DNA of 64,000 bases, from contig CACWIG010000006.1 in the NCBI GenBank assembly GCA_902760955.1, forward strand, positions 1,354 through 65,353, read 5' to 3'. Under the pieces are notes generated by a model. The model was given only the letters and a program-made list of their open reading frames with translations. It was not told the origin of the DNA and made no database searches. A program made the position numbers and the translations under genes. Origin of the DNA: an uncultured Ruminococcus sp. (GTDB lineage Bacteria > Bacillota > Clostridia > Monoglobales > Monoglobaceae). Shown here one piece after another: positions 2,791 through 38,510 of the stretch. The first letter of the stretch is position 1; the number at the start of each line of letters is the position of its first letter.

Positions 2791-2889
2791 GTTATAATTC
2801 AAAATAATTTTTTCTTTGCGGTTGGGCTTGGCAACCATATGGGCTTTGGGCAATTATTCATTAAAATTATTTTGGAATTTACAATTTGT
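2791..2889 (+). repeat. Family A structured intergenic element, copy 1
   Basis: AATTCAAAATAATTTTTT..GGTTG-GGCTTGG-CAACC-ATATGGGCTTTGGGCAAT..AAAATTATTTTGGAATTTACAATTTGT. Aligns along its full length with the copies at 7621, 26276 and 38398. Confidence 0.75.
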
Positions 2890-2924
2890 CATTAAACAGA
2901 TAATTTATTGCATACTCCAAGGCT

Positions 2925-2958
2925 GTTTTCGGGACGTCGGGGACGCCGTCCCCTACAA
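2925..2958 (-). repeat. GTAG-hairpin repeat (family B), canonical GGGACG type
   Basis: Reverse strand reads TTGTAGGGGACGGCGTCCCCGACGTCCCGAAAAC, identical to the copies at 52916 and 55036. Confidence 0.8.
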
Positions 2959-2972
2959 TGTGATATATCTTA

Positions 2973-3020
2973 TGTAGGTGTTTTTTCGAGACAAATGAGA
3001 ATGTCGTCCCATACAAATGT
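2973..3020 (-). repeat. GTAG-hairpin repeat (family B), decayed copy
   Basis: Reverse strand reads ACATTTGTATGGGACGACATTCTCATTTGTCTCGAAAAAACACCTACA. Head TTGTATGGGACG, tail CGAAAAAAC and CCTAC are kept but the stem is degraded. Confidence 0.5.
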
Positions 3021-3061
3021 AAAATAATTTATCTGTTTGAAGAAATACGTAACACGTCACG

Positions 3062-3095
3062 TGTAGGGTTCGGCGTCCTCGACGAACCGAAAAAT
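3062..3095 (+). repeat. GTAG-hairpin repeat (family B), GGTTCG/CGAACC stem variant
   Basis: TGTAGGGTTCGGCGTCCTCGACGAACCGAAAAAT. Same head, loop (GCGTCCTCGA) and tail as the canonical copies, with a different complementary stem. Confidence 0.75.
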
Positions 3096-3180
3096 GTCTA
3101 AAAATATACATCAAATCATCCGTTTGGCAAATATGTAACACACTCCCGACCACGTGGTATATCACACATATGTAGATATT

Positions 3181-3219
3181 GTTTTTCAGAACATCATAGA
3201 TGTCGTCCCATACAAATGT
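3181..3219 (-). repeat. GTAG-hairpin repeat (family B), AT-decayed copy
   Basis: Reverse strand reads TTGTATGGGACGACATCTATGATGTTCTGAAAAAC. It aligns base-for-base with the canonical unit, and all 9 substitutions are GC-to-AT. Confidence 0.6.
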
Positions 3220-3261
3220 ATTCAGCATTTAATCTACAAATCCAGATTTCATTGGACAATT

Positions 3262-4388
3262 TCAGGCTTTGCATTTCTTTTCTGTTTTTAAAATCATAAA
3301 TAGCAATAATACAAAAAAGAGAGCAAGATGCAATGGCATAAACCTTATACTAATATTATTGGCAATCAAGCCGAAAATCGGCGGCATAAATGTAGAGCCT
3401 ACATATGCACTTGCCATTTGAATTCCTATAATCCCTTGCGAATTTTCCGCACCAAAATTATATGGTGTGGAATGAATGATACACGGATATATCGGTGCAC
3501 ATCCAAGACCTATTATAACAAAGCCGATAACAGACGCAATTTTCAACGGCAATATAATGCATAAAACTCCAATCAAAGCTACACTTGTGCCGAGGTAAAT
3601 CATTTTATTATCGCCAAGTTTATCTGTGATAAATCCCGAAATAAATCTCCCTGCCGTAAGTCCTATAAAGAACAATGCACCAAAACCGGCTGCAGCCTCC
3701 TTGGTCAATCCTCTTGTACTTTCTAAGTAACTGCTTGCCCAAAGCATCGTTGTAGCCTCCGCCGCACAGTACGCAAAAAAACCTATCAACAAATATGGTA
3801 CTCCTTTTATTTTCAAAGCACCTCTAATTCCAAGAACTGCTGAATTTCTTTTTTCAAATATGGTGAATTTATTTATCTTCCATAATGGAATAGTAGCTAA
3901 CAACACAGCCAAAATGACAAACTGCAAACACGAAACCATACGATAACCATCTGTCCAGGAGTTGTGCATCAACGCATAACTCATTATATAAGGACTGATA
4001 ATTGTTCCCACTCCCCAAAAACAGTGCAACCAACTCATATGCTTTGATTTATAATGAAGAGCAACATAATTATTTAATGCCGCATCAATTGAACCTGCAC
4101 CCAATCCATATGGTATCCCCCATAAACACATATGATAAAATTCAGTCGATTTTGAAAATCCCCACAAAGCAACTGCCGTTAAGGCAACACTCACAAGGGT
4201 AATGGTTCTTGTACCCAACTTCTTGGTAAGTCTTTCAGCCTCTTTCTGGCTCATAAAATAAATCCCATATAAGACAGAGGAACATCAAATGCAACACGAA
4301 TTGCAGGCCAGGCCGAACCCAACAAAGAATCAGGCAATCCAAGACTTATAAAAGCCAGATATATAACAAGTAACAGTAATAAATACAT
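3262..4388 (-). pseudogene. MFS transporter, frameshifted (or assembly indel)
   Basis: The N-terminal 45 codons from ATG 4388 (MYLLLLLVIYLAFISLGLPDSLLGSAWPAIRVAFDVPLSYMGFIL) end at TGA 4253-4251. The remaining 330 codons (4254-3262, ..KHMSWLHCFWGVG..) are in another frame (offset 134 nt). Both parts read as one MFS protein. Confidence 0.6.
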
Positions 4389-4460
4389 CTTAACATATTC
4401 CTTTCCTTTCGATTACCTTTCAAAATCACGGTTCGGGTTTATAATATCAGCCTATTTTAC

Positions 4461-4505
4461 ACAAAACTAAAAACGTCATCAAAATTATGACGTTCTTAGT
4501 TTTGT
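4461..4505. terminator. Long AT-rich palindrome, possible terminator after the capD-like gene
   Basis: ACAAAACTAAAAACGTCAT-caaaatt-ATGACGTTCTTAGTTTTGT, a 19-bp stem with one mismatch. There is no clean U-tract on the minus strand. Confidence 0.4.
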
Positions 4506-4525
4506 CTATAATTCTATCATCATCT

Positions 4526-6517
4526 TTATGACAAAACAGGCTCCGGTTGATTGTTTTTTTCATTAACCTCGATTGACTTTGCGTTCACTTCATCTGACCT
4601 CTTAAACGTCGGAACCACCTCTCTCAAGGCATCTCTGACTAAATCATCATCTTCTGTTTCGCAAGCCTTTTGCAGAATTTCCATCTTTTTGTCGATTTCT
4701 TCCTTGCTCAAAGGCAAATCGTGTTCAATAAAAATCAACTTATTATCAGTTTTATCGAGTTCCGCTGTTTTAACAAGGAGTTCTTCATAGAGCTTTTCGC
4801 CAGGTCTAAGCCCTGTTTCAACAATTTCAATTCCGCTGACGCCTGACAGGCGAATCATACTCTCAGCCAAATCAAGAATTTTAACAGGCTGACCCATATC
4901 AAGAACAAACAATTCTCCGTTTTTTGCCATAGCACCGCTTTCCAGAACTAATTGACTTGCCTCAGGAATAGTCATAAAATAGCGAATTATTCTTTTATCA
5001 GTTATCGTGATGGGACCACCGTTTGCAATCTGTTTCTTAAACAATGGGATAACAGAACCGGCTGAACCCAACACATTTCCGAAACGAGTTGAACTATACT
5101 TCACTTTGCCGTGTATACTTGCACTCTGAACAAGCATTTCACACATACGCTTTGTCGCACCCATAACATTTGTCGGATTAACCGCTTTATCCGTAGATAC
5201 CATCATAAAACGCTCTGCATCGTATTTCTCACATAAATCAATTACGTTTTTTGTTCCAAACACGTTGTTGCAAACTGCCTCTACACAGTTGTTTTCCATA
5301 AGCGGAACGTGCTTATGAGCCGCAGCATTAATAACAATCTGCGGATGATATTTTTTAAATACACATTCAAGAGCCCTTTTGTTTGTAATAGAACAAATCT
5401 CTATATGTAAATTCAAGCGATTGCCGTATAATATTTTCAATTCCTGTTGAACATCATATGCGCCGTTTTCGTATATATCCAAAATAATAATCTGTTTTGG
5501 TTGCATCTTTGCCAACTGTCGACAAAGCTCTGAACCAATAGAGCCGCCGCCACCTGTTATCAATATAACTTTATCCTGATAGTATTTGCTGGTACGTTCA
5601 TTTGCGACAACCAATTGCTTTCTGAACAGCAATTCTTCAACATCAAACTCCCTGAGATGTCGTTTTCCTTCTGTCGTATACATTGTTGGGTAATCATATA
5701 CCTTAACCTTGAACCCTGCCTCCTTGTAATAATCATAGAGAGACTTTTTCTTTTCCGCATTCATTGACGGAATAGCAAAAACAATTTCCTGTACCTCAAA
5801 TGCCTCAAGCATTTTTAGGGTCACTTTATCTTCCGAGAAAACAGGAATACCGTGTATTTCGCGCCCCGCTTTTTCCTTTTTAATATCAATAAAACATCTC
5901 GGAACATATGCAGATTCTTTATTGCTTAAAAGTTCCTCCGCAAGACTGACACCCACACGTCCGGCACCGATAATTGCAATTTTGATTTTATGTGCATCCT
6001 TCCCCTTATCTGTCTCCAATCCCGCTAAAAGCCAAAGGGCAAAAGACGCAATCTTCCCTATTATATTATCTTGACCTCCGCACTTATACGCATAACGATA
6101 AAACATACGCATTGTCAATGCTCCCAACAAATTCAATGTGAACAACGACAAAGACCTGACAAACATATCTTTTTCAATGGGGAAAAGTAAATCAACGCAC
6201 AAATATATAAGAAAGGCAACAAAATCGGTGAATATCAATCTGATGTAACATTGTATTCCGCCATATCTCCATACCTGTCCGTATATATTTCCAACAATAC
6301 GGGCAGTAAAAATACAGGCAGCCGATATAACTATCTGTTGGATAATCCCATCTATAGTTAAATTCTTTGCTCCCTCATACAAAATAAACAAAACAATGGC
6401 TATGGCAACATAAATTATAGCATCGTACAAAACAAGCATCCATCTTATGTTTCTTTTGTTCCATATTGTTTTATGTTTTTTGTTTTTTGAATCAATTTTA
6501 TTGCCAGCAAAACACAT
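4526..6517 (-). CDS. Membrane-anchored NDP-sugar 4,6-dehydratase/epimerase (CapD/PglF/WbpM family polysaccharide biosynthesis protein)
   Basis: 663 aa. Four to five N-terminal TM helices, two Rossmann motifs (IIGAGRVG, ITGGGGSIG) and the CapD-type core ..STDKAVNPTNVMGATKR... Confidence 0.8.
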   Translation of the reverse strand: MCFAGNKIDSKNKKHKTIWNKRNIRWMLVLYDAIIYVAIAIVLFILYEGAKNLTIDGIIQQIVISAACIFTARIVGNIYGQVWRYGGIQCYIRLIFTDFVAFLIYLCVDLLFPIEKDMFVRSLSLFTLNLLGALTMRMFYRYAYKCGGQDNIIGKIASFALWLLAGLETDKGKDAHKIKIAIIGAGRVGVSLAEELLSNKESAYVPRCFIDIKKEKAGREIHGIPVFSEDKVTLKMLEAFEVQEIVFAIPSMNAEKKKSLYDYYKEAGFKVKVYDYPTMYTTEGKRHLREFDVEELLFRKQLVVANERTSKYYQDKVILITGGGGSIGSELCRQLAKMQPKQIIILDIYENGAYDVQQELKILYGNRLNLHIEICSITNKRALECVFKKYHPQIVINAAAHKHVPLMENNCVEAVCNNVFGTKNVIDLCEKYDAERFMMVSTDKAVNPTNVMGATKRMCEMLVQSASIHGKVKYSSTRFGNVLGSAGSVIPLFKKQIANGGPITITDKRIIRYFMTIPEASQLVLESGAMAKNGELFVLDMGQPVKILDLAESMIRLSGVSGIEIVETGLRPGEKLYEELLVKTAELDKTDNKLIFIEHDLPLSKEEIDKKMEILQKACETEDDDLVRDALREVVPTFKRSDEVNAKSIEVNEKNNQPEPVLS

Positions 6518-6848
6518 TTTTATACCCTTCCTATAATAGATAGTTTGATAGGTTCACACATAGGTCATTATACCACACACTAATAAAATAGTCAATATTT
6601 TTACTGAAATTTAGTCAAAATTCTATGTAATTTTTGTTGTATTTTCATCTATGCTGCTTATAATTAAAATAAATACAAAAGATAATGTTAAAAAAGTATG
6701 ACAAAAATGATAACTTTGCGGAAAGTTATCCACAATTTACAATTGTCTAATGTTATTTTAATTTGTAATATTGATTTTATATTTAGTGTATGCTATAATT
6801 ATATAAAAATAACTATGTAAGCTGTAATTCACGCAAGGGGTATTTAGT

Positions 6849-7592
6849 ATGAGCTTATTCTTGACATTGGCTTTTTTGTTTTTTATAGGTTCTGTATCGG
6901 GTTGGGTACTTGAACTGTTTTTCAGAAGATTTATTTCTTCAGGCAATCCCGACAGAAAATGGATTAATCCCGGTTTTTGCACAGGTCCGTACCTGCCTTT
7001 ATACGGAGTAGGACTTTGTGTTCTGTATCTTATTGCCTCAGCAGAACAGAAATTATCTTTTTCGTATGTATACTTACAAAAAATTGCATTATTTTTGATT
7101 ATGGCAATTTGTCTTACTGTGGTTGAATATATAGCAGGCATTATAAGCATAAAAATCGCAAAAGTTCGTTTATGGGATTACAGCGACGAATGGGGAAATA
7201 TACAAGGTATTATTTGTCCAAAGTTTTCTTTTTTCTGGAGTCTGCTCGGTGCACTATATGGCTTCCTTGTTCACCCATACATAAACGATGCACTCGATTG
7301 GTTTTCTAAAAACCTGGCGTTTTCTTTTGTTATCGGAATGTTTTTCGGTATATTTGTAATTGATGTTGTGCACTCGTTCCAGCTTGTTGCAAAACTAAAA
7401 AGATATGCCGAAGAAAACGACGTTATCGTACGCTATGAAGCTATTAAAAACGATATCAGAAGCAGATATGAAAAGACCAAAGAGAAATATCATTTTTTCA
7501 GACCTTTCCGTTCGGATATTCCTCTGTATGAGCATTTATCAAAGTTACATAATTCATTTGAAAAAAGAAAAAGGAAAAACAAAAGGAAATAA
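6849..7592 (+). CDS. Integral membrane protein (resembles the putative ABC-transporter type IV / CmpB-like family)
   Basis: 247 aa with several TM segments. N-terminus FFIGSVSGWVLELFFRRF..NPGFCTGPYLPLYGVG is reminiscent of that family. The assignment is from memory only. Confidence 0.5.
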   Translation: MSLFLTLAFLFFIGSVSGWVLELFFRRFISSGNPDRKWINPGFCTGPYLPLYGVGLCVLYLIASAEQKLSFSYVYLQKIALFLIMAICLTVVEYIAGIISIKIAKVRLWDYSDEWGNIQGIICPKFSFFWSLLGALYGFLVHPYINDALDWFSKNLAFSFVIGMFFGIFVIDVVHSFQLVAKLKRYAEENDVIVRYEAIKNDIRSRYEKTKEKYHFFRPFRSDIPLYEHLSKLHNSFEKRKRKNKRK

Positions 7593-7620
7593 TTATTACA
7601 CAGATTTGGTAATTATAAAA

Positions 7621-7730
7621 TGTAGAAAATCTCCGCAAAATCCGAAATAATTTTTTACATTGCAGTTTGGGCTTGGCATCTGTATGGGCAAAGGGCAATA
7701 TTCAATAAAATTATTTCGGATTTACAACTT
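7621..7730 (+). repeat. Family A structured intergenic element, copy 2 (with degenerate B-like head fused at the 5' end)
   Basis: TGTAGAAAATCTCCGCAAAATCCGAAATAATTTTTTACATTGCAGTTTGGGCTTGGCATCTGTATGGGCAAAGGGCAATATTCAATAAAATTATTTCGGATTTACAACTTG. The arms TCCGAAATAATTTT and AAAATTATTTCGGA are perfectly complementary. Confidence 0.75.
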
Positions 7731-7800
7731 GCACGTTATCTTTATTTCACGCAGTTCTCACGTTTCACAAACGACTAAATCAATATAAAGGGGAAAGACT

Positions 7801-8589
7801 ATGTTTACATTGGATAACATTTTACAAATCCTAAAACCATTAACAAAAGCTGCACTTGTTCTTCTTATCGGTCACTTTATCATTGTTTATATTATCAAAA
7901 TAATAAACCGCGGTTTTGAACGAAGCAAAGTTGATAATTCACTTGCAATTTTTTTATCAAAAGGAATTAATATTATTCTTCATATATTGATAATCCTCTC
8001 TGCATTGAATAGTCTCGGAATATCCACAGGCGGAATTATAGCCGCTTTCTCTGCCGCTGTTGTTGCTGTCGGCGTTGCTTTGAAGGATTCCCTGGGCAAT
8101 GTGGCAGGAGGTATATTACTGTTACTTTCACCTCGTTTTCACGCAGGCGATTATATTAAAACAGACACAGATGAGGGTACAGTTATAGATATCGGTATGC
8201 TTCATACCACAATACGAACATTTGATAACAAACAGATAAGCATTCCCAATGGAACTTTGATTAACAGCCACATAACAAATTATTCTGCAGAAGAAACAAG
8301 ACGAGTCGACCTAACCTTCTCCATACCTTACGAAACAGATGCTGAAACTGCGAAATCTATTATCAAAAATACGATTTTAAGCCGACCAAAAATTTTAACT
8401 CAGCCGTCAGAACCCTTTGTACGCGTTATCAGTTACGGAGAAAGCTCCGTTAACATCATTACAAGAACGTGGTGTAACACAGAAGATTATTGGGATGTTT
8501 ACTTTGACTTAAATGAGCAGATACGATATGCACTAAAAAAAGAGGGTATAGATATTCCATACAACCAACTTGATGTTCATATAAAATAA
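7801..8589 (+). CDS. Small-conductance mechanosensitive channel (MscS family)
   Basis: 262 aa. Three TM helices, then the MscS beta-domain (GDYIKTDTDEGTVIDIGMLHTTIRTFDNKQISIPNGTLINSHITNYS). Confidence 0.85.
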   Translation: MFTLDNILQILKPLTKAALVLLIGHFIIVYIIKIINRGFERSKVDNSLAIFLSKGINIILHILIILSALNSLGISTGGIIAAFSAAVVAVGVALKDSLGNVAGGILLLLSPRFHAGDYIKTDTDEGTVIDIGMLHTTIRTFDNKQISIPNGTLINSHITNYSAEETRRVDLTFSIPYETDAETAKSIIKNTILSRPKILTQPSEPFVRVISYGESSVNIITRTWCNTEDYWDVYFDLNEQIRYALKKEGIDIPYNQLDVHIK

Positions 8590-8596
8590 AATTTGC

Positions 8597-8625
8597 TTGA
8601 AAACATACAAAACATATGTTATTAT
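8597..8625 (+). promoter_or_regulatory. Candidate sigma-A promoter of the Rrf2 gene
   Basis: TTGAAA (8597-8602), 17 nt, TATTAT (8620-8625). Confidence 0.5.
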
Positions 8626-8667
8626 AGTATATTATAAATAAAAAATCAAAAGAGAGAGGCATATTTT

Positions 8668-9105
8668 ATGAAGATATCGACAAAAGGAAGATACGCTTTG
8701 CGTATGCTGATTGACCTTGCACAGCACAAAGACGAAGGTTTTATAGCCTTAAAGGATATTGCGGAAAGACAAGGTATATCCAAAAAATATTTAGAACAGA
8801 TAGTTCCCATATTAAATAAATCAGATATCCTGCAAACAAACCGCGGATATCAGGGCGGATACAGGCTTGCTCAGGAGCCGAGTAAGTATACAATAGGTAA
8901 AATACTACGTCTTACCGAAGGCAGTCTTGCTCCTGTTTCGTGCCTGGATAATACCACAAATCAGTGCGAACGCCGTGACGAATGTGTAACACTTTATATT
9001 TGGCAAGGACTTAACAAGGTTATCAACGATTATCTTGACAACATCACGCTTCAAGATGCATTAGACCACCAACAAGAGAGATATTCAAATGATTATATGA
9101 TTTAA
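8668..9105 (+). CDS. Rrf2 family transcriptional regulator (IscR/CymR-like)
   Basis: 145 aa. MKISTKGRYALRMLIDLA...wHTH, with Cys residues (C92, C100, C106) as in cluster-binding Rrf2 proteins. Confidence 0.85.
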   Translation: MKISTKGRYALRMLIDLAQHKDEGFIALKDIAERQGISKKYLEQIVPILNKSDILQTNRGYQGGYRLAQEPSKYTIGKILRLTEGSLAPVSCLDNTTNQCERRDECVTLYIWQGLNKVINDYLDNITLQDALDHQQERYSNDYMI

Positions 9106-9121
9106 ACCTTGCAATAAATTC

Positions 9122-9151
9122 TTGACAAACATACAGCTCATATGGTAAAAT
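9122..9151 (+). promoter_or_regulatory. Candidate extended -10 promoter of the preQ1-riboswitch leader
   Basis: TTGACA (9122-9127), 18 nt including TGG, TAAAAT (9146-9151). Confidence 0.55.
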
Positions 9152-9213
9152 GACATCAACAACTTAGGGTGATAGTATAAATCCGAACCGTGATTTGTAC
9201 TTTCACCCTAATC

Positions 9214-9254
9214 AGACAGTTCGTGACCATCCTGTCTATAAACAAAACTACGGG
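9214..9254 (+). promoter_or_regulatory. preQ1-I riboswitch aptamer
   Basis: AGACAG-UUCGUGACCAUC-CUGUCU-AUAAACAAAACUACGG. Compare the B. subtilis queC aptamer AGAGG-UUCUAGCUACAC-CCUCU-AUAAAAAACUAAGG. Loop CGUG can pair with tail UACG (H-type pseudoknot). The downstream gene is a YhhQ-type preQ0/preQ1 transporter. Confidence 0.75.
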
Positions 9255-9258
9255 TGAT

Positions 9259-9284
9259 GGGCGTTGTACGCCCTCTTTTCTTTT
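9259..9284 (+). terminator. Short intrinsic terminator (candidate riboswitch expression platform)
   Basis: GGGCG-TTGTA-CGCCC followed by TCTTTTCTTTT. The stem is only 5 bp. Confidence 0.45.
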
Positions 9285-9325
9285 CAGGATGGATTGCGTC
9301 ATACTATATTTAAAAGGTGATACAA

Positions 9326-10078
9326 ATGATTAAAAAAATCCGTACTGAATATCAAGAATTTCAAATTCTTATGAAATCTGTTCCATCATTAATTTTAGGG
9401 CTGTTTTTAATGTCTGTATTCTCTATGAACTTGTTAGCTAACAAAAGCATAACCCTTCCTTACGAATGGCTCGCATTAGATTGCGGAATAATTGTGTCTT
9501 GGTTTACATTCTTAACAATGGATATAATTACTACACATTTCGGTCCTAAAGCATCAACAGAACTATCAATATTTGCTATTATAATTAATTTAATTTTTTG
9601 CACCATCTTCTATATCGGCAGCTCTATCCCTGGTATGTGGGGAGAATCATTTTCTGCAATTGACGGAGCATCTGTCAATATGGCACTTGACAACACCTTT
9701 GGCGGTACTTGGTACGTAGTTGCAGGCAGTACAATTGCTTTTGTTGTATCGGCTGTAATTAATAATTTCTCTAACTTTGCAATAGGTAAATTATATAAGA
9801 AAACCCCCAACAGCTATATTGCATATATTTCAAGAACATATATTTCAACTGCAATAGGTCAGTTTGCTGATAATATGACATTTGCTCTTATCGTCAGCCA
9901 TTTCTTCTTTGGTTGGACATTAGTACAATGTATCACCTGTGCTGTTACAGGTATGTTGGTTGAACTACTCTGCGAAATCATCTTCTCCTTCTTCGGCTTT
10001 AAAATATGCAAGAAATGGAGAAAAAACAACATTGGCAAGGAGTATATAGAATATCGTAAAACTTTAAAAGAGGTGTGA
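9326..10078 (+). CDS. yhhQ: Queuosine-precursor (preQ0/preQ1) transporter, YhhQ/VUT (DUF165) family
   Basis: Multi-TM protein with YhhQ-like blocks (..FLTMDIITTHFGPKAS.., ..GQFADNMTFALIV..). Start moved to ATG 9326 (RBS AAAAGGTGA) rather than GTG 9317. Preceded by the preQ1-I riboswitch. Confidence 0.75.
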   Translation: MIKKIRTEYQEFQILMKSVPSLILGLFLMSVFSMNLLANKSITLPYEWLALDCGIIVSWFTFLTMDIITTHFGPKASTELSIFAIIINLIFCTIFYIGSSIPGMWGESFSAIDGASVNMALDNTFGGTWYVVAGSTIAFVVSAVINNFSNFAIGKLYKKTPNSYIAYISRTYISTAIGQFADNMTFALIVSHFFFGWTLVQCITCAVTGMLVELLCEIIFSFFGFKICKKWRKNNIGKEYIEYRKTLKEV

Positions 10079-10080
10079 AT

Positions 10081-10728: not shown

Positions 10729-10796
10729 CCCAAAACTTGACAAACCAACCCTTTTGTAGTATACTTGTAAAAGTTTTTTAACATAGGGGTGATTAT

Positions 10797-10991
10797 ATGA
10801 ATAACGAAGCTATCGAACAGCCTAACATCAAACAAGAGATTAAAGAGCTTGAAAACGTTTCCATAATAGCAATGGAAAACTTAGAGGCAGAGCTTAACAA
10901 ATATTCTGAGGAAATTCACTCTGGTGAAATAGAGCTTTTGTCTATCCACCCCGACAGACCTTTGATTTTAGATATTAAAAAAGTATATTAG
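10797..10991 (+). CDS. Hypothetical small acidic protein (64 aa)
   Basis: RBS AGGGGTGA upstream and a strong terminator immediately downstream. I recognise no family. Confidence 0.4.
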   Translation: MNNEAIEQPNIKQEIKELENVSIIAMENLEAELNKYSEEIHSGEIELLSIHPDRPLILDIKKVY

Positions 10992-10992
10992 T

Positions 10993-11027
10993 AAACAGTT
11001 TCCCATCGTAAAGGGAACTGTTTTTTA
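10993..11027 (+). terminator. Intrinsic terminator
   Basis: AAACAGTTTCCC-atcgtaaa-GGGAACTGTTT followed by TTTTTATTT. Confidence 0.7.
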
Positions 11028-11068
11028 TTTATACATAATGCAAATCAAATTCATCTTCTCTTCTGCTT

Positions 11069-14887: not shown

Positions 14888-14890
14888 GTT

Positions 14891-26221: not shown

Positions 26222-26261
26222 AACTCCTCTCATTCATCTGTCAATGAGAGGAGTTTATTTT
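26222..26261 (+). terminator. Intrinsic terminator
   Basis: AACTCCTCTCATT-catctgtc-AATGAGAGGAGTT followed by TATTTTA. Confidence 0.7.
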
Positions 26262-26275: not shown

Positions 26276-26379
26276 TGTGTAAATGGAGCCTTAAATTCAA
26301 AATAATTTTTTCATTGCATTTGGGCTTGGCAAATGTATGGGCGTAGGGCAATTGTTCAATAAAATTATTTTGAATTTAA
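26276..26379 (+). repeat. Family A structured intergenic element, copy 3
   Basis: ..AAATTCAAAATAATTTTTTCATTGCATTTG-GGCTTGG-CAAATGTATGGGCGTAGGGCAATTGTTCAATAAAATTATTTTGAATTTAA. The 17-nt arms are perfectly complementary. Confidence 0.75.
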
Positions 26380-26428
26380 TTTTCATATCATAAAAAATAT
26401 CGTTTATATTAAAGCAAAGGTGACATAA

Positions 26429-26803
26429 ATGAGTACAACAAACCTGATAAATTCAAATTTACATAACTCAAATAAAGGAATGCTTATCTGCAAAGATTGC
26501 GGACGTGTTATCTGTAACATCAGCGATAATCTCGACTGTTATAAGATTTCGTACATATGCAGATGCGGTTCTATGGGTTCGGCAGAGGTAAATTCCGTTA
26601 AACTCAATATTGCCGACTCCCCTTCCGCCGTCCTCAAGGGTAACCATATCATATGCCCTTGCTGTAACTTATCACTCTTGGCATTGATGCCTGAAAACTA
26701 CATCAATATCGCTTTCAGAATAAAATGCAAATGCGGTCACACATTTAATAAATTTAAAAATTATTCCGACATAAATAAGCGTTTATCTGAATATAATTTA
26801 TAA
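26429..26803 (+). CDS. Hypothetical Cys-rich (zinc-ribbon-like) protein, 124 aa
   Basis: Paired Cys motifs CKDC...CRC and CPCC...CKC. RBS AAAGGTGA. Confidence 0.5.
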   Translation: MSTTNLINSNLHNSNKGMLICKDCGRVICNISDNLDCYKISYICRCGSMGSAEVNSVKLNIADSPSAVLKGNHIICPCCNLSLLALMPENYINIAFRIKCKCGHTFNKFKNYSDINKRLSEYNL

Positions 26804-30923: not shown

Positions 30924-30937
30924 CAAGGGGTGAAAAA

Positions 30938-32038
30938 ATGAAAGGCTTAATATTATCCATTACAGCAGGACAAGGTCATAATCAGACAGCAAAAGTCTTA
31001 AGTGACTATTTTAATCAAAACAATGTTGAATGTTCGTATATGGATGTATATGAATACATAAACCCAATTTTATCGGATACTGTTTCAAAGCTGTACCTTA
31101 TGTCAACCAAGACGATGCCTAAAGTCTACGGCAAAATATACAGACTATGCGAGAAAAAGCCAGGTGACGAAATGCACACTCTGCCAAGGCTTACAAATCA
31201 TCTTCTCGGTAAAAAGCTAAGCAAAATGATTAATGCTGAAAACCCTGATTTTATCATATGTACTCACGTTTTTGCGGCACTTTTAATCACCTGCCTTGAA
31301 GGTGAAATCAGCAGTGACATCAAAACCTATGGTATTATTACCGATTTTACCATTCATCCGTATTGGGAAGACACCCGAATGGATTACTACGTTACCCCTA
31401 CCGAGTTGCTGACCAAGCAAGCGGAAAAAAGAGGCTTGCCTGAACGAAAATTCATACCTATCGGCATACCAATCGACACTAAATTTGAAACAAAAATGGA
31501 CCGCATTGACGCACTTAAAGCTCTGAAACTGCCAAACAAAAAGACTGTTTTAATTATGAGCGGAAGTATGGGGTTTGGCAATATATCAGAACAAATATCA
31601 GAGATTGATAAAATACCTCAGGACTTTCAGATTATCAGCGTTTGTGGAAATAATAAAAAGCTAAAAGAAAGTATTGACCGTCTTGAAACAAAAAAAGCCG
31701 TATATAACTACGGCTATGTTGATAATGTTGATGTGATGATGGACGCCTCAGATTGTATAATCACAAAGCCTGGCGGACTCACCACAAGCGAGGCGTTGGC
31801 AAAGGGACTTCCTATGATAATCAGCAATCCTGTACCAGGACAAGAGGATAGAAATGTTGAGTTTTTGCTAAACGCAGGTGCAGCTATCAAAGTAAGCGAA
31901 ACTTATCCCATTGACGAAGCAATCCATCAGATGTTTATGAGTGACAGAATGTCTCTTATACGCGAAACCATAAGCGTCCTGGGCAAGCCTCACTCAACAC
32001 GTGACCTTGCCAATTTTATAATAGGTTCTCTTGAGTAA
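30938..32038 (+). CDS. Diacylglycerol glycosyltransferase (MGDG synthase/UgtP-like, GT28)
   Basis: 366 aa. N-terminal ILSITAGQGHNQTAKVL and C-terminal KPGGLTTSEALAKGLPMI, typical of the MGDG-synthase family. Confidence 0.8.
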   Translation: MKGLILSITAGQGHNQTAKVLSDYFNQNNVECSYMDVYEYINPILSDTVSKLYLMSTKTMPKVYGKIYRLCEKKPGDEMHTLPRLTNHLLGKKLSKMINAENPDFIICTHVFAALLITCLEGEISSDIKTYGIITDFTIHPYWEDTRMDYYVTPTELLTKQAEKRGLPERKFIPIGIPIDTKFETKMDRIDALKALKLPNKKTVLIMSGSMGFGNISEQISEIDKIPQDFQIISVCGNNKKLKESIDRLETKKAVYNYGYVDNVDVMMDASDCIITKPGGLTTSEALAKGLPMIISNPVPGQEDRNVEFLLNAGAAIKVSETYPIDEAIHQMFMSDRMSLIRETISVLGKPHSTRDLANFIIGSLE

Positions 32039-32066
32039 CCCATTGGTTTACCTGCCTATCCCTCAT

Positions 32067-32097
32067 AAACGGGCGATTCGTGAATCGCCCCTACAAA
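32067..32097 (-). repeat. GTAG-hairpin repeat (family B), GGGCGATTC/GAATCGCCC stem variant
   Basis: Reverse strand reads TTTGTAGGGGCGATTCACGAATCGCCCGTTTAT. It has the GTAGG head, a 9-bp perfect stem and a divergent tail. Confidence 0.65.
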
Positions 32098-32113
32098 CAC
32101 ACAAGAAAGTCAT

Positions 32114-32145
32114 AAATTCACAATAATTTTATTGAATGATTGCCC
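32114..32145 (-). repeat. Isolated right arm of family A (inverted)
   Basis: AAATTCACAATAATTTTATTGAATGATTGCCC is the reverse complement of GGGCAATCATTCAATAAAATTATTGTGAATTT, the A right half. It abuts the B copy at 32155. Confidence 0.6.
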
Positions 32146-32154
32146 TGTGCCATA

Positions 32155-32186
32155 TGTAGGGGACGGCGTCCCCGACGTCCCGTAAA
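32155..32186 (+). repeat. GTAG-hairpin repeat (family B), canonical
   Basis: TGTAGGGGACGGCGTCCCCGACGTCCCGTAAA. Confidence 0.8.
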
Positions 32187-32223
32187 ATCTACTACAAAAA
32201 TAAAAATATTTTAAATTACTAAC

Positions 32224-33021
32224 TTATTCGTTCTCATTTTCTGCAGGCTGAGGCAAATAATTATGGGGATTTGCTGTTTCCTCATTTAAACTTATCTCAA
32301 AATGTAAATGTGGTTTTTCAAGTGCCTCAGCAGTTGCAGTACTTCCTACTCTTCCTATGGGCGTACCTTTGGTAACATTGTCACCAATTGCAACCTCTGT
32401 TCCCTCAGCAAGATTTGAATATATACTTCTTACTCCTCCATTATGCAAAATAATAACAGTCCTGCCAAACATACCATTGTCTGTAATCGCCTCCACAGTT
32501 CCGTCGGCAACCGCCAACACATCTGTGCCTTCCTCCGCATAAAAGTCAATTCCGTTATGAGTTCTCCAATCCTTCAGGGTTTCAGAATATACCAGATTAT
32601 CACCTGAATAATCTTTCACCACCGCTCCGCTCACAGGAAAAATAAATGCATCAGATGAACTTTGTGTTGTATTCTGTTCAGGCTTATCCGAATTATCTTC
32701 TGCACTTTGCACATTTTCCCTGTTATCCGTATCAGACTTTATTTCACTGTCCTCTTGTTGTTTTGCGGCAGTAACTGCCTCCTCGTTATAAACAGCATTT
32801 AAACCGCTGTCTGCCGCACTCGTCTTTTCGTCTTTTTCTATAGCAGAACTTTCTATTGCCGATTTGTCAAAGGGTTTATCTTCATCATTTGCAACATCGT
32901 TAGGCACAAATGCCGTCATTATAATTGCAAAAAGTGCTATTACCGCTGTTGATATTCCAAGTACAATCAAATTCTTTGCATCAAATAAAGAACCTTTCTT
33001 TTTATTATTTTTTGTGTTCAC
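32224..33021 (-). CDS. Membrane-anchored M23 family metallopeptidase
   Basis: N-terminal TM anchor, low-complexity linker and LytM domain (HNGIDFYA..., GSTATAEALEKPHLHFEI). Confidence 0.8.
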   Translation of the reverse strand: MNTKNNKKKGSLFDAKNLIVLGISTAVIALFAIIMTAFVPNDVANDEDKPFDKSAIESSAIEKDEKTSAADSGLNAVYNEEAVTAAKQQEDSEIKSDTDNRENVQSAEDNSDKPEQNTTQSSSDAFIFPVSGAVVKDYSGDNLVYSETLKDWRTHNGIDFYAEEGTDVLAVADGTVEAITDNGMFGRTVIILHNGGVRSIYSNLAEGTEVAIGDNVTKGTPIGRVGSTATAEALEKPHLHFEISLNEETANPHNYLPQPAENENE

Positions 33022-33090
33022 TTATATCACCTCAAAGGTAGTATGAGCAAACAAATGGCATTTTATAACTATATTTTCATAATTTATTTA

Positions 33091-33861
33091 TTATAATTTA
33101 TCAGCTATGTTGGGCAACAGCTTCCTTTCAAGTATTTCAGCAGTCACAAAAGTCACAGCAATCACCAATATCAGATAAACAAATTTATTAGGCTCCATAA
33201 ATTTTCCAAACAACAATGTACTTCTGTATCCCTCCGCCATCAATGCAACAGGGTTTAACTCCACTATCCTTTTAATACCTGTGTCAAGCATATCTACATT
33301 CCAGAAAATCGGTGTCACCCAAAAGCCTATATTTAATATTACATTTAAAATGTTTTGAATATCCTTATAATATCCGCATAATAAAGACAGTATCTTTCCA
33401 AGTGACAGAACATATGCATAACATATTATCACCATAACAGCTAAACCCAAAATTCCTGATATACAAATGTTATTTAATGCAGAAACAACAACCACAATAC
33501 TCAAAAAAAGAAGATGGGAAAAAAGAGAGGACACACAACGTACATCAGGCAAAATCTTTTTGTTAAATCGCATTTTCTTAACAAGAAAAGAATAATCTCT
33601 GTAAGATGCACAAACGCTTCTCAACCCATCTGCTACATACAGCCAGATGGCAAGCCCCACCGACAGCCATAAGTAATATGGTATACCGCAAACATCACCG
33701 CCGCCAAAGGCAAATGTATACACAAACCTATAAACAGCAACCGTAACTAAAGGCTCGGCTATTGCCCATAGGACACCTAATGCCGAGCCTGCGTATTTAG
33801 ATTTAAAATCATTAACTGCAAGCTTGAATATCTCAAGCAAGCCAACAACTATAGTTTTCAT
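33091..33861 (-). CDS. ABC-2 type transporter permease (TagG/Wzm-like polysaccharide or teichoic-acid exporter)
   Basis: 256 aa with six TM helices. The N-terminus ..FKSKYAGSALGVLWAIAEPL.. is typical of ABC-2 exporters. There is no adjacent ATPase. Confidence 0.75.
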   Translation of the reverse strand: MKTIVVGLLEIFKLAVNDFKSKYAGSALGVLWAIAEPLVTVAVYRFVYTFAFGGGDVCGIPYYLWLSVGLAIWLYVADGLRSVCASYRDYSFLVKKMRFNKKILPDVRCVSSLFSHLLFLSIVVVVSALNNICISGILGLAVMVIICYAYVLSLGKILSLLCGYYKDIQNILNVILNIGFWVTPIFWNVDMLDTGIKRIVELNPVALMAEGYRSTLLFGKFMEPNKFVYLILVIAVTFVTAEILERKLLPNIADKL

Positions 33862-33864
33862 AAC

Positions 33865-34590
33865 TCAATCACTAAATTTCCAGGCAGGAAGTCCCGTTTG
33901 AATTGCGTGCATAATCTTTGTTTTAAAGAACTTGTCCTCTCTGTTATGCTCTGCAATATATTCCTTCATATCCTGACGCTTGGAATATCCGTCCATAGGA
34001 CAGGGATTATGCACAATCGGCAACTCCACTTCCTTTGCAAAACCTTTTATCTCACTTTCAGGCAAGTATATCATAGGACGGATAACATATATATCCTTTC
34101 TTGAAAGATATGTAACAGGCGAAAAACAGTTCAGTCGTCCCTCATAGAAAAGCGAAAGAAAAAACGTCTCTAAAACATCATCATTGTGATGTCCCAATGC
34201 GACCTTATTACAGCCAAGCTCTACTGCCAAGCTGTTCACACCGCCTCTGCGCATTTTAGCACAGAGAGAACAAGGATTTTTTTCCTTTCTTACATCAAAT
34301 ATGATTTCAGCAATATCGGTTTTTTCCACAACGTACTTAACATTTAGTTTTTTACACAGTTCCTCAACACCTGCAAAGCTGACGTCGGGATATCCCATAT
34401 CAAGAGAAACACCGACAACCTCAAAATTTTTAGGATAAAATCTTCGCAATTCCGCAAGGGCAACCAGAAGGGTAAGGCTGTCCTTACCCCCTGATACACC
34501 AACGGCAATGCGGTCGCCGTCCTCAATCATATGATATTCGTCAACCGCACGTCTTACCTTACTTAAAATCTTCTGCAATCTGTTTTCCAT
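33865..34590 (-). CDS. PP-loop ATPase, tRNA 2-thiocytidine biosynthesis TtcA-like
   Basis: SGGKDS PP-loop, CSLCAKMRRG and NPCP Cys motifs. Confidence 0.8.
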   Translation of the reverse strand: MENRLQKILSKVRRAVDEYHMIEDGDRIAVGVSGGKDSLTLLVALAELRRFYPKNFEVVGVSLDMGYPDVSFAGVEELCKKLNVKYVVEKTDIAEIIFDVRKEKNPCSLCAKMRRGGVNSLAVELGCNKVALGHHNDDVLETFFLSLFYEGRLNCFSPVTYLSRKDIYVIRPMIYLPESEIKGFAKEVELPIVHNPCPMDGYSKRQDMKEYIAEHNREDKFFKTKIMHAIQTGLPAWKFSD

Positions 34591-34596
34591 ATGTCA

Positions 34597-37104
34597 CTAT
34601 TCTTCTATACTGTCTGCTGTATCGTTATTTTCTGCGTTGCTGTCAACCTCTGATGTTTCTTCGGGCTCTTCATCTTTTTTGACGCTTTCAACCGTCAAAA
34701 TCTTAACTCCGTCCGCAAGTCTCATCAAGCGTACACCCTTGGTAACTCTGCCGTATGTGCTGATTTCTTCGCTTTCCATACGTATGATAACACCCTCTGA
34801 TGTGATAAGCATAATATCGTCGTCAGCATCAACTATCTTCATACCTGCAATATTACCTGTTTCATCACTGACACGATAGGTCATCATACCCTTACCGCCT
34901 CTGTTCTGACGCTTGTATTCAGAAAGTTCAGAACGCTTGCCATAGCCGTTTTCACTGACAGTCAACAACTTGCCGTTTTCGGTTCCGATACACATTCCGA
35001 TAATATAGTCTTCATCATCAAGTGACATAGCTTTTACGCCTCTTGAAACACGTCCCATATTGCGGACGTCTTCTTCATTAAATCTTATTATCTTACCAAA
35101 GTGCGAACCCACAAAAACGTCAGTAGTTCCATCTGTAAGGGCAACACCGATAAGCTCATCATTGTCGTCAAGTTTAATAGCAATCTTACCTGCCTTTGGT
35201 GCATTCTTATACTCATCAAGGTCAGTTTTCTTAATTATGCCTGCACGAGTGCACATAATAAGACTCTTATCGTCCTCGTACTCTCTGATGGGTATAACCG
35301 CAGAAATGGTCTCATCAGGCTCTATCGCAATAATGTTCACAATAGGCGTACCCTTAGCCTGTCTGCTTGCTTCAGGAATTTCATAGGCTTTTACTCTATA
35401 CATACGTCCTTTATTGGTAAAGAACAGTATATGGGCGTGAGTTGAGGATACAAACATAGTGCTGACAAAGTCCTCTTCCTTTGTTGAAAGTCCGATAACG
35501 CCTTTACCTCCACGCTTTTGAGCCTTATACACGTCAACCGCCATACGCTTAACATATCCCTTATGGGTTAAAGTGATAACATTATTTTCTTCTTCAATCA
35601 AGTCCTCAATATCAATATCGTCAGTAACAGCCTCAATACCTGTTCTTCTTGAGTCGCCGAACTTATCTTTGATTTCTGTGAGTTCTGTCTTGATTATTTC
35701 AAGAACAAGCTTTTCGTCCGCCAAAATATCACTCAAATGCTTGATAAGAGCAATCAAATCGTTATATTCTTTGTCGATTTTCTCTCGCTCCATTCCCGCA
35801 AGTCTTGCAAGACGCATATCAAGAATTGCCTGAGCCTGTATTTCGGTGAGATTAAATCTGTCAATCAACTTTTCTTTAGCATCATTATAACTGCTTCTGA
35901 TTGTATTTATAACCTCATCAATATTGTCAAGTGCAATTCTCAAACCCTCTAAAATATGAACTCTCGCCTCAGCCTTTTTCTTGTCAAACTTTGTACGTCT
36001 TGTTATAACCTCTTTTTGGAAATCAAGATAATTAACAAGAATTTCTTTAAGGTTTAAAACCTTAGGGTCTGTTTGATTGACAAGGGCGAGCATAATAACG
36101 CCAAAGCTGTCCTCAAGCTGAGTGTACTTATACAGCTGATTTAAAACAATTTGAGCATTAACACCTGTTTTAAGCTCAACAACAATTCTCATTCCGTCAC
36201 GGTCAGACTCATCTCTAAGGTCAGAAATTCCTTCTACACGCTTGTCGTGTACAAGTTCTGCTATCTTTTCGATAAGACGCGATTTGTTGACCATATACGG
36301 AATTTCGGTAATCACAATACGCTGTCTGTTTTCCTTCCAATCCTGTATTTCGGCTCTTGCACGCACACGAAGCTTACCTCTGCCCGTATGATACGCCGCA
36401 CGAATACCCGACTTGCCCATAATAAGTCCGCCTGTCGGGAAGTCAGGTCCTGGAATGTGGTCCATAAGTTCATCAATAGAAATATCAGGATTGTCGATAA
36501 GGGCAATTATACCATCAATAACCTCGCCTAAATTATGGGGAGGAATATTGGTAGCCATACCGACAGCAATACCATTTGAGCCGTTTACCAAAAGATGCGG
36601 TATTCTTGACGGCAATACAAGAGGTTCTTTTCTTGTTTCGTCAAAGTTAGGCATAAAGTCAACTGTCTCTTTTTCAATATCAGTCAGCATATTAAGGGAC
36701 AGCTTAGACATACGAGCCTCAGTATAACGATAAGCAGCAGGGGGATCGCCGTCAACAGAACCAAAGTTACCGTGGCCGTCAACAGTCGGATACCTCATTG
36801 CAAAATCCTGTGCCATACGAACAAGTGCATCATATACAGATGCATCACCGTGAGGATGGTATCTACCCAGAACATTACCTACGGTAGTAGCACATTTACG
36901 ATATTCCTTGTCGGGTGTAAATCCGTCTTCATACATAGCATACAAAATACGTCTGTGAACAGGCTTTAAGCCGTCACGGACATCAGGCAATGCACGTCCG
37001 ACAATAACGGACATTGCATAGTCAATGTATGACTTTTTCATTTCGCTGTTTAACTCGACAGGAATAATATTAAGTTTACTTTCATCAAAAATTCCTTCAG
37101 GCAT
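34597..37104 (-). CDS. gyrA: DNA gyrase subunit A
   Basis: 835 aa. [16 protein letters not shown], active-site [14 protein letters not shown]-like [18 protein letters not shown]-terminal beta-pinwheel and acidic tail. Confidence 0.95.
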
Positions 37105-37316
37105 AATATTATCTCCTTAATTTAAAAAATACGCTAAATTTAATTTTTACATTTTTTATATATTTCGCCAAAAATATTGAATTTCCTTTTTTTAGGCTCA
37201 AATTTGCTTTAATTTTTTATTTTTGCATCCTTTTTTTATTCTGCTTTATCCTTTTTGTGTGTCGAAATGTTGATATTCTTAAATATATATTGAAATTTTA
37301 ATATTGACTACTTCTA

Positions 37317-37363
37317 TCTATGTGATAAACTAAATATGTAAAAAGATACATATAACACATAGA
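37317..37363. promoter_or_regulatory. Nested inverted repeat directly upstream of the galT RBS (candidate operator or 5'UTR hairpin)
   Basis: TCTATGTG..ATATGTA-aaaaga-TACATAT..CACATAGA, ending 10 nt before the RBS. Confidence 0.3.
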
Positions 37364-37378
37364 AAGGTAGTTTTAACA

Positions 37379-38359
37379 ATGGCTGAATTAAGATACAACC
37401 CACTTACAAAGGATTGGGTAATGATTGCCTCTCACCGTCAAAACAGACCTCAGATGCCAAAAGATTGGTGTCCGTTCTGCCCAGGTTCAGGCAAGGTTCC
37501 CGATAATTTTACTGTTTATAAGTACGATAACGACTTTCCTGCTTTGTCACAAAATCCTCCCGTCCCTGATGATGTTGCAACAGACCTCTATAAAACACGT
37601 GAGGCATATGGCAAATGCGAGGTAATTTTATATTCACCAAATCACACAATCACTCTGCCTGAGCTTCCTGTTGAACATATCAGAGAGCTTGTTGATTTAT
37701 GGACAGATAGATTTATTGATATTTCAAAGGACGAAAAGATTAAATATGTATTCATATTTGAAAACAGAGGTGACGTTGTAGGTGTTACAATGCCTCACCC
37801 TCACGGACAGATTTATGGTTACAGCTACGTTCCCAAAAAGCTTGAGGTTGAGCTCGACTCCTCAAAGGAGCACTTCAAGGAAACAGGCAACTGTCTTTTT
37901 TGCGATATTTTGAAAACTGAAAAGGAAGTAGGTCAGAGAGTTATTTTCGAGAACGAAGATTTTATTACGTTCCTTCCGTTCTTCACTGATTATCCTTACG
38001 GCGTATATATTGCGGCAAAATCACACATTCAGAATTTGGCACAATTCAATGACAGACAAAAGGATAATCTTGCCGCAATCCTTAAAGAAACAGCAGGAAT
38101 GCTTGATTGTCTTTTCGACTATTCCTTCCCTTATATGATGTGTATGCATCAGGGTCCTGTAAACACAGAGGACTGCAGTGACTACTTCCACTTCCATATT
38201 GAGTTCTTCCCGCCAATGCGTGCCGCAGATAAGCAAAAGTTCAACGCATCAAGCGAAACAGGTGCCTGGGCGGCTTGCAATCCAACAGCACCTGAAGAAA
38301 AGGCTGAAGAATTGAGACAAGCTCATAAGAAGTTTCTTGACAAAATCGCAAACATATAG
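37379..38359 (+). CDS. galT: Galactose-1-phosphate uridylyltransferase (HIT-type GalT)
   Basis: CPFCPG zinc motif and HPHGQ active-site His-x-His. Confidence 0.9.
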   Translation: MAELRYNPLTKDWVMIASHRQNRPQMPKDWCPFCPGSGKVPDNFTVYKYDNDFPALSQNPPVPDDVATDLYKTREAYGKCEVILYSPNHTITLPELPVEHIRELVDLWTDRFIDISKDEKIKYVFIFENRGDVVGVTMPHPHGQIYGYSYVPKKLEVELDSSKEHFKETGNCLFCDILKTEKEVGQRVIFENEDFITFLPFFTDYPYGVYIAAKSHIQNLAQFNDRQKDNLAAILKETAGMLDCLFDYSFPYMMCMHQGPVNTEDCSDYFHFHIEFFPPMRAADKQKFNASSETGAWAACNPTAPEEKAEELRQAHKKFLDKIANI

Positions 38360-38397
38360 TATAACTGATATATAAATAAAGGGTAAAAATATAAGGC

Positions 38398-38510
38398 TGT
38401 GAAAAAATCTCCGCATAATCCGAAATAATTTTTTCATTGCAGTTGGGCTTGGCAACTGTATGGGCTTCGGGCAATTGTTTAATAAAATTATTTTGGATTT
38501 ATAATTTGTG
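38398..38510 (+). repeat. Family A structured intergenic element, copy 4 (between galT and galK)
   Basis: TGTGAAAAAATCTCCGCATAATCCGAAATAATTTTTTCATTGCAGTTG-GGCTTGG-CAACTGTATGGGCTTCGGGCAATTGTTTAATAAAATTATTTTGGATTTATAATTTGTG. Confidence 0.75.

Follow-up and report, generated by a model that had tools for sequence, protein, structure and literature searches.

Correia/NEMIS elements of Neisseria and RUP elements of Streptococcus pneumoniae are multi-copy, non-coding repeats of about 100-250 bp that lie between genes or inside operons, carry terminal inverted repeats and a target site duplication (TSD), show presence/absence polymorphism and, as a whole transcribed unit, fold into a long hairpin. 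We compare with them here family A, a repeat with four full copies in a 64-kb stretch of DNA from an uncultured Ruminococcus sp. (contig CACWIG010000006.1; this whole stretch is called the window), which is alike in all these respects. It differs by its TSDs of 9-13 bp, whereas Correia and RUP duplicate TA, and in that it is most conserved in an asymmetric centre, invertible within its frame, and has no known parent insertion sequence (IS). The ERIC/IRU repeats of Enterobacteriaceae are also similar, being imperfect palindromes of about 100-130 bp that lie in transcribed intergenic DNA in either orientation, are conserved between species, have no known transposase and show a conservation pattern suggestive of constraint on a folded form; however, ERIC is without clear TSDs and terminal repeats of the family A kind, has no sequence similarity to family A and belongs to another host phylum. 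REP/BIME and REPIN clusters are mosaics of palindromes in fixed relative orientation at operon junctions, and GTAG-headed repeats of this look (families B and C, below) do adjoin family A, but A itself has no GTAG head with a palindrome and is flanked by TSDs, which are unexpected from RAYT-type insertion. Lastly, Rfam holds multi-copy structured motifs of unknown function of about 90 nt, with covarying helices, invariant loop and junction nucleotides and many copies per gut Clostridia genome; unlike these, family A matches no Rfam 15 model and demonstrably travels on a DNA transposon.

Family A is best filed as a new family of MITEs (miniature inverted-repeat transposable elements) with a structured central module, and not as a new kind of system. 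With moderate confidence, we propose that it forms the conserved centre of a non-autonomous DNA transposon, a module under constraint for its fold, and that it acts chiefly via its + strand transcript. The clade in which the MITE has spread is one of uncultured rumen and gut Clostridia. As far as can be checked, the repeat family is previously undescribed; a literature search for core sequence strings returned irrelevant matches only.

A folded module in four copies and its relatives

An earlier note, made from the letters of the window, had reported four full copies on the + strand, and this count holds. The core pattern GGGCTTGGCANNTGTATGGGC (21 nt, up to 3 mismatches) matched the four family A sites only, with 0 matches in 100 shuffles, and a covariance model built from family A gave exactly four full matches in the window, with 89-106 bits. 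The module consists of three helices, P1 (16 bp), P2 (4 bp) and P3 (6 bp), a loop GGCTTGG and a junction GTATGGGC-NNN-GGGCAAT. Loop and junction are almost fixed across copies; P1 and P3 covary strongly. The features of the four copies are the following.

2796-2880, + strand: copy 1, A module (short form), covariance model 96.7 bits
2798-2811 and 2863-2877, + strand: copy 1, P1 arms
2820-2836, + strand: copy 1, P3 hairpin with loop GGCTTGG
2837-2854, + strand: copy 1, junction ATATGGGC-TTT-GGGCAAT
7602-7780, + strand: copy 2, whole MITE insertion block (A module with "head" and "tail"), from alignment with relatives
7602-7631, + strand: copy 2, degenerate left terminal inverted repeat of the MITE (..GGTAATTATAAAATGTAGAAAATC), formerly called a "B-type head"
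7638-7723, + strand: copy 2, A module, covariance model 88.8 bits
7638-7654 and 7707-7723, + strand: copy 2, P1 arms
7663-7682, + strand: copy 2, P3 with bulge and mismatch
7683-7699, + strand: copy 2, junction TATGGGC-AAA-GGGCAAT
7757-7780, + strand: copy 2, right terminal inverted repeat of the MITE (CTCACGTTTCACAAACGACTAAAT), which fits the family consensus TTTTCACGTTTTACAAACGGCTA
26291-26379, + strand: copy 3, A module, covariance model 105.5 bits
26291-26309 and 26361-26379, + strand: copy 3, P1 arms
26317-26335, + strand: copy 3, P3
26336-26352, + strand: copy 3, junction TATGGGC-GTA-GGGCAAT
38392-38551, + strand: copy 4, probable MITE frame with degenerate ends TAAGGCTGTGAAAAAATC ... 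AAAATAAACGATAG, proposed by similarity to TSD-delimited copies
38417-38499, + strand: copy 4, A module (reference anatomy), covariance model 106.2 bits
38417-38432 with 38484-38499, + strand: copy 4, P1 with one G-U pair
38436-38439 with 38472-38475, + strand: copy 4, P2 (ATTG/CAAT)
38440-38445 with 38453-38458, + strand: copy 4, P3 (CAGTTG/CAACTG)
38446-38452, + strand: copy 4, loop GGCTTGG
38459-38471, + strand: copy 4, junction TATGGGC-TTC-GGG

Complementary outer arms with compensatory changes had been claimed for these copies, and both the covariation scores and RNAalifold agree; the right arm of copy 1, however, reads AAAATTATTTTGGAA, with an extra G that makes it an imperfect complement of the left arm. 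The inner hairpin does keep its pairing through compensatory changes in P3, but the details given for two copies had to be corrected: the stem of copy 1 has 5 bp (GGTTG/CAACC) followed by a C-A mismatch, and that of copy 2 has a bulged T in addition to its mismatch. The loop GGCTTGG, described as invariant, does not vary among the window copies, but the wider family departs from it occasionally (11 of 14 copies have it in a metagenome scan anchored outside the loop, the others having GGTTTGG, GGCGCGG or GTGGCTTGGAA). The three nucleotides of the junction that had been noticed as hypervariable in the window (TTT, AAA, GTA and TTC in copies 1 to 4) are the most variable position across the family.

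Covariation was scored on two alignments, one made with MAFFT (80 distinct copies, with the structure drawn from copy 4) and one fitted to the model (103 distinct sequences, and biased towards that model). We observed standard pairs in 93.9% of cells on the MAFFT alignment, against 86.1% after shuffling, and in 96.2% on the model-fitted one; pairs changed on both sides numbered 19/26 and 23/26, respectively. The covariation score was 0.241 with MAFFT, compared with 0.101 for shuffles and 0.03-0.07 for slid structures, and 0.353 on the model-fitted alignment, compared with 0.104 and 0.03-0.09; none of 500 shuffles reached the observed score in either case. On the model-fitted alignment, compensatory double changes were present in 16/16 P1 pairs and 6/6 P3 pairs, and RNAalifold found P1 and P3 unprompted. 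In some metagenome-assembled genomes (MAGs), the P1 arms are unrelated in sequence to those of the window and yet form perfect complements of 12-19 bp around an identical core (loci L006, L043, L044, L073, L095, L114 and the second copy in L087).

The earlier proposal to look for homologues in other Clostridia was followed up, and at least 100 further copies were found in at least 14 uncultured Clostridia MAGs (Monoglobaceae-like, from rumen and gut). Species-representative genomes were scanned with the pattern GGGCTTGG-N4-9-TATGGGC-N2-5-GGGCAA, which gave at least 96 loci; among the 96 matches listed, about 80 are true copies from 14 MAGs and 16 are chance matches in coding DNA of unrelated phyla. 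The carriers include rumen genomes RUG11189, RUG12270, RUG13671 and RUG14314, human-gut UMGS821 and several SGB bins, one of them a Ructibacterium, and three rumen MAGs carry at least 23, 20 and 13 loci. The genome scan demanded an exact core, so that the invariance of the core across MAGs is partly built in; chance survival is nevertheless excluded, since one MAG has four exact cores with three unrelated P1 arms. A RUG12270 contig shares 94.6% identity with the window, and cluster mates of two window proteins bear the label Monoglobaceae.

Modules are also arranged head-to-tail in tandem, with a period of about 94 nt (L066 7159-7350, L082 2713-2903), the upstream tandem copy having a diverged right arm (AAATTTATTTTGCGATAAAA...), and the tandem copy number differs between related MAGs (e.g. 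L036 vs L046). The insertion of copy 3 is common to L020 and L082, with a tandem duplicate in L082.

Plasmid and phage collections held no sequence similar to family A, and its terminal repeat was not found in viral contigs. The only contig filed as viral that contains the element is L097 (IMGVR_UViG_3300039331_000182), which is 100% identical over 1 kb to the bacterial MAG contig L052 (UMGS821); either it belongs to a prophage or bacterial sequence was classed as viral.

Insertion as mobile DNA

The earlier note had leaned towards a free-standing RNA element. We observed instead that a mobile DNA, with terminal inverted repeats, TSDs and empty sites, carries it as its central part. The TSD-delimited units are 108-250 bp long and non-coding. 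Their terminal inverted repeats have the consensus TAGCCGTTTGTAAAA(CGTGAAAA) / (TTTTCACG)TTTTACAAACGGCTA and stand 0-8 nt from the duplications. Paired terminal repeats were found 200-290 bp apart. The P1 arms form an inner inverted repeat of 14-22 bp, the inner layer of the same long imperfect palindrome as the termini. The upstream sequence TGTAGAAAATCTCCGC, named a "B-type head" in the earlier note, is indeed shared by copies 2 and 4, but its version in copy 3 is weak and its identity is another one: it aligns with the MITE left terminal repeat ATTGTAAAATGTGAAAAC and does not align with REP family B.

A search for duplications at the insertion sites had also been recommended. At least 13 copies have TSDs of 9-13 bp, which directly abut the inverted termini:

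13 bp: L012 (239-bp unit), L034 (238 bp), L067 (216 bp), L022 (110 bp)
11 bp: L089
10 bp: L017, L031, L057, L075, L016 (108-bp short form), L054 (REP+A unit)
9 bp: L058, L048

Flanking direct repeats of 10 nt or more are present at 30% of copies, compared with 6.6% in a control that pairs the flanks of different copies.

Empty sites give the same picture. Strains were compared whose MscS falls in the same 90% protein cluster as that of the window: the copy 2 site is filled in the window and in L120, L121 and L124, with a CmpB-MscS spacer of 208-226 nt, and empty in the close relatives L123 and L125, where this spacer has only 33 or 23 nt. Copy 4 lies within a galT-galK spacer of 232 nt, present also in six metagenome contigs with identical GalK; in the more distant RUG11189 (L039) the site is empty, and galT and galK overlap (TAAATG). 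The insertion sites are short intergenic spacers, some of them inside operons.

Prokaryotic MITEs are defined as elements of, among other features, 50-800 bp, non-coding, with terminal inverted repeats of 10-15 bp or more and a typical TSD of 2-10 bp (PMC11602168). Since its size, terminal inverted repeats, TSDs and presence/absence polymorphism fit this definition, the element is a MITE, although its duplications of 9-13 bp exceed the typical range given there. The earlier note would have called it an ordinary MITE if it matched an autonomous IS of the same genome; the hallmarks of a MITE are present, whereas such an IS was not found in 0.9 Mb of related loci. In the proposed mechanism, a transposase, probably of the DDE type and encoded elsewhere in the genome, would move the MITE in trans and would make staggered target cuts about one helical turn apart. 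The window itself encodes no transposase.

The IS4 family (e.g. IS231/MIC231) is a lead for the source of such a transposase, and not an assignment. According to Table 1 of PMC2266710, the IS4 subgroup has TSDs of 10-13 bp and IS231 has TSDs of 10-12 bp; the family A duplications, also close to one helical turn, lie within 8-13 bp. The ends differ, those of family A being TAGYC.../...GGCTA with variable extra bases and the IS4 signatures CAT..., CA... and nAATR....

These results bear directly on a free-standing, non-mobile structured RNA family, that is a small RNA or a cis-regulatory leader. Strong covariation of two helices, conserved loops and a mild + strand and sense bias would all suit it, and it would be new since there is no match in Rfam (0 matches at gathering thresholds in an Rfam 15 scan over the window). 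But TSDs, terminal inverted repeats and empty sites indicate arrival by insertion, and the insertion polymorphism largely refutes this explanation, which we consider very unlikely. The genes that flank the copies are moreover functionally unrelated (MscS, galK, GDSL lipase, ruvA/ruvB, metG, AraC regulators and others), some 30% of copies run antisense to the genes on both sides, and no promoter or terminator is consistently associated. In the ruvA-ruvB-metG neighbourhood, three MAGs have an A copy (L065 5280-5377, L024 4425-4521, L044 6062-6159) at three different positions, one in each MAG: upstream of ruvA, between ruvA and ruvB, and antisense after ruvB. These could be independent insertions or could reflect an insertion hot spot.

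Constraint on the core and level of action

In aligned composites, column identity is 0.92-0.96 in the A module, 0.89 in the right terminal repeat and 0.6-0.76 in the linkers, and across MAGs the core stays identical while P1 is replaced. This is unusual for a MITE, in that conservation is stronger in the asymmetric centre than at the ends. In seven orthologous comparisons, the A module differs at 14/570 sites and the 300-nt flanks, which are partly coding, at 201/3645, that is a change about 2.2 times slower in A (odds ratio 0.43, Fisher p = 0.0014). We propose that the core would be retained by selection on its fold and on its unpaired G-rich motifs, and not merely by youth. The reversed pattern of conservation, together with the invertible core described below, makes family A a tractable case on whether transcripts or folded DNA preserve bacterial MITEs.

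Some signals distinguish the strands. Cells with G-U outnumber those with A-C by 30:11 in P1 and 14:4 in P3 on the model-fitted alignment, and each of the three substitutions that separate orthologues in the stems is compatible with wobble pairing on the + strand (3/3). Between co-directional genes, 31 of the 44 informative copies are sense and 13 antisense, with a typical distance of 50-90 nt to the next start codon. The + strand preference suggested earlier is thus confirmed in a mild form, through sense bias and G-U excess. Intrinsic terminators were not consistently associated with the copies (upstream of 9/74, downstream of 6/74), and no recurrent protein stands next to the element across the examined loci. 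A leader of the riboswitch type is excluded because of the unrelated neighbours, the 13/44 antisense copies and the lack of consistent terminators.

We favour action via the + strand transcript because copies tend to be sense, G-U is in excess, resident copies are constrained and some insertions lie inside operons, where they are necessarily co-transcribed. A sense copy inside a transcription unit would form a long stem capped by a three-helix tip that a protein could recognise, and this stem may change how the host mRNA is processed, its stability or the coupling of its translation, by analogy with REP, ERIC and Correia repeats. If the core does act at the RNA level, the transposon spreads a regulatory RNA structure over operons. 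Action of the same fold in transposition, as single-stranded or cruciform DNA, is nearly as likely.

The same MITE could also have a core that is active only in DNA, where a hairpin, a cruciform or a single-stranded fold would join the termini, transcription being incidental; the G-rich tip would then bind the transposase or a host architectural protein. We hold this to be possible, if less probable than action via the transcript. The shortest TSD-delimited units, of 108-110 bp, are too short a stretch for easy bending of DNA; a fold juxtaposing the ends would presumably help synapsis, and the core is conserved along with the right terminal repeat. In RUG11189, moreover, two amplified subfamilies differ in how the core bounded by P1 is set in the outer frame, one having it inverted with respect to the other: the left frame of class I resembles the reverse complement of the right frame of class II, and vice versa, while the cores of both classes align in the same orientation (72/77 positions). 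That both classes were amplified fits a symmetric role in DNA. Copy 3, which probably is not transcribed, is intact, and DNA hairpins also tolerate G-T wobbles. On the other hand, selection for transposition competence acts only on source copies, so that the 2.2-fold slower change of resident copies would be unexplained unless there is gene conversion, and neither the 31:13 sense bias nor the excess of G-U over A-C is predicted.

Several points weigh against a fold-constrained MITE core that acts chiefly as a transcript. P2 (ATTG/CAAT) has no covariation support on either alignment and hardly varies, the G-U excess is modest on the MAFFT alignment (46:30), and the copies used for covariation and G-U counts are phylogenetically non-independent. 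Template switching at quasi-palindromes can yield changes in DNA that look compensatory without any selection on RNA, and gene conversion between copies could pass for purifying selection. The antisense copies must also be accounted for, as must copy 3, which may be untranscribed, having an intrinsic terminator (26222-26255) on one side and a promoter-like site (26382-26410) on the other. Regarding mobility, no pair of terminal repeats or P1 arms brackets an open reading frame (ORF) of an autonomous parent in 0.9 Mb of related loci, the termini of several copies are degenerate or poorly conserved, the TSD length is inconstant (8-13 bp), and copies 1, 3 and 4 of the window show no clean duplication. 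As no transposase with matching ends was seen and the end signatures differ, the transposase and its family stay inferred.

A bolder proposal sees in the A module a functional structured RNA of a new class, with three helices and a protein-binding or other activity, and in the MITE its vehicle. We regard it as doubtful. If it is true, transposition has seeded one post-transcriptional control element, with an invariant GGCUUGG loop and a GUAUGGGC-NNN-GGGCAAU junction, into dozens of unrelated operons, and the resident copies are held by purifying selection.

The core could, in principle, be a portable promoter or a double-stranded operator (TTGGCA-N18-AATTAT, or the sigma-54-like TTGGCA..TGGGC). 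Promoter-like matches do overlap it on both strands, and the sense bias and the next start codon 50-90 nt away would fit. But the putative -10 hexamer is not conserved (AATAAG, AATCAA, AACCAT, AAAAAT and others), GG and GC stand one base too far apart for sigma-54, and the covarying P3 and P1 stems are left unexplained. For these reasons, sigma-70, sigma-54 and sporulation-sigma promoters in the core were all rejected, and we find such a role extremely improbable.

Other candidates were tried and discarded. The sequence CCAAGCCC on the - strand occurs as in the twister ribozyme, but the G-rich pseudoknot partners and an Rfam match are lacking. A permissive scan for other Rfam 15 families around copy 4 gave one noise match only (E = 0.56). 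The mini-ORF ATG-GGC-NNN-GGG-CAA... (MGxGQLFNKII...) would hold the variable triplet in frame, but junction indels and a 2-nt variant break this frame. Gene context and spacing are unsuited to a T-box-like specifier triplet or an integron attC site. A G-quadruplex would have only three G3 tracts, partly used by the covarying P3 stem. A strict orientation relative to the replication strand is contradicted by opposed copies on one contig (L034, L061, L087, L067/L089).

Family A is an undescribed MITE family, still mobile, in a clade of rumen and gut Clostridia that has been little studied, and provides a ready marker for strain-level insertion polymorphism.

REP-like neighbours and minor observations

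Two REP-like families lie beside family A in the window, together with two hybrid elements:

2924-2958 (-), 32155-32186 (+), 39914-39944 (-), 52914-52950 (+) and 55038-55064 (+): family B, REP-like, TGTAGGGGACGGCGTCCCCGACGTCCCG
3059-3110 and 39847-39898: family B, diverged copies
52740-52914: family C, REP-like units in a tandem array, repeating every 48 nt (AATTGTAGGGCAGGGGCTCGCTCCTGCC...)
32113-32189, - strand: hybrid element, A right half fused to a family B REP, covariance model 43.5 bits
52708-52767, - strand: hybrid element, A right arm (GCAATTATTCATTAAAATTATTTTGAATTT) with the first unit of the family C array

Family B has a GTAG head followed by a palindrome that pairs in two registers and, by analogy, looks like a classic RAYT-associated REP, here in Clostridia. 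The last unit of the family C array is a family B repeat; its first unit has the head TGTATGG and is fused to a family A right arm.

The two right-arm fragments of family A reported on the - strand are real (32107-32154 and 52703-52737), but not isolated as the earlier note had them: they are hybrid elements, with a REP where the 5' half of A would be. In the first one, the A right half (TATGGCACAGGGCAAT...AAAATTATTGTGAATTTA) is 32113-32154 read on the - strand, and the family B REP at 32155-32186 stands in place of the A 5' half. The modular kinship that had been supposed between families A and B is a physical link, made of hybrids and of REP(-) copies adjoining A(+), rather than demonstrated homology.

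A REP(-) end (CYCTACA) is present within 50 nt 5' of A(+) in 14/71 copies, when 0.3 would be expected. This excess, the REP/A hybrids of the window and the mosaic, BIME-like clusters would agree with a REP/REPIN-type element moved as single-stranded DNA by a RAYT (HUH tyrosine transposase), and TGTATGGGC is vaguely like the REP head TGTAGGG. However, the A core is without a GTAG-plus-palindrome, TGTATGGGC being followed by the direct repeat GGGC-NNN-GGGC, and the A units are flanked by their 9-13 bp TSDs. HUH enzymes of the IS200/IS605 type insert without target duplication. Because target duplications are present, a RAYT-type single-strand mechanism is unlikely for A units, and for the element as a whole we give it only a slight chance. 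With an approximate E. coli RAYT query, tblastn found no such protein; the DNA searched is a small sample per genome, which makes this a weak test.

Copy 1 is flanked by two - strand genes (GDSL lipase and MFS transporter), to both of which it is antisense, and REP(-) copies stand on both sides of it. A 91-aa ORF at 2953-3228 (-) has REP-like repeats at both ends (2924-2958 and 3059-3110) and no Pfam match; it is probably not a gene. Directly downstream of copy 3, a cysteine-rich ORF of 124 aa (26429-26803) has no Pfam match and is conserved in L020 and L082.

A perfect DnaA-box-like 9-mer (TTGTGGATAAC / GTTATCCACAA) is present in the outer frame of many MITE copies. In RUG11189 it lies within 60 nt of an A module at L012, L034, L017, L004, L031, L089 and L057. 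Dozens of such boxes per genome could be relevant to DnaA titration, or may be a coincidence.

Finally, a pair of 32-nt inverted repeats, 91% complementary, was observed in the window at 4423-4454 and 9165-9196. The 4.7 kb between them contains copy 2 and four genes, and the pair may belong to a further family of repeats or mark the two ends of some larger mobile DNA.

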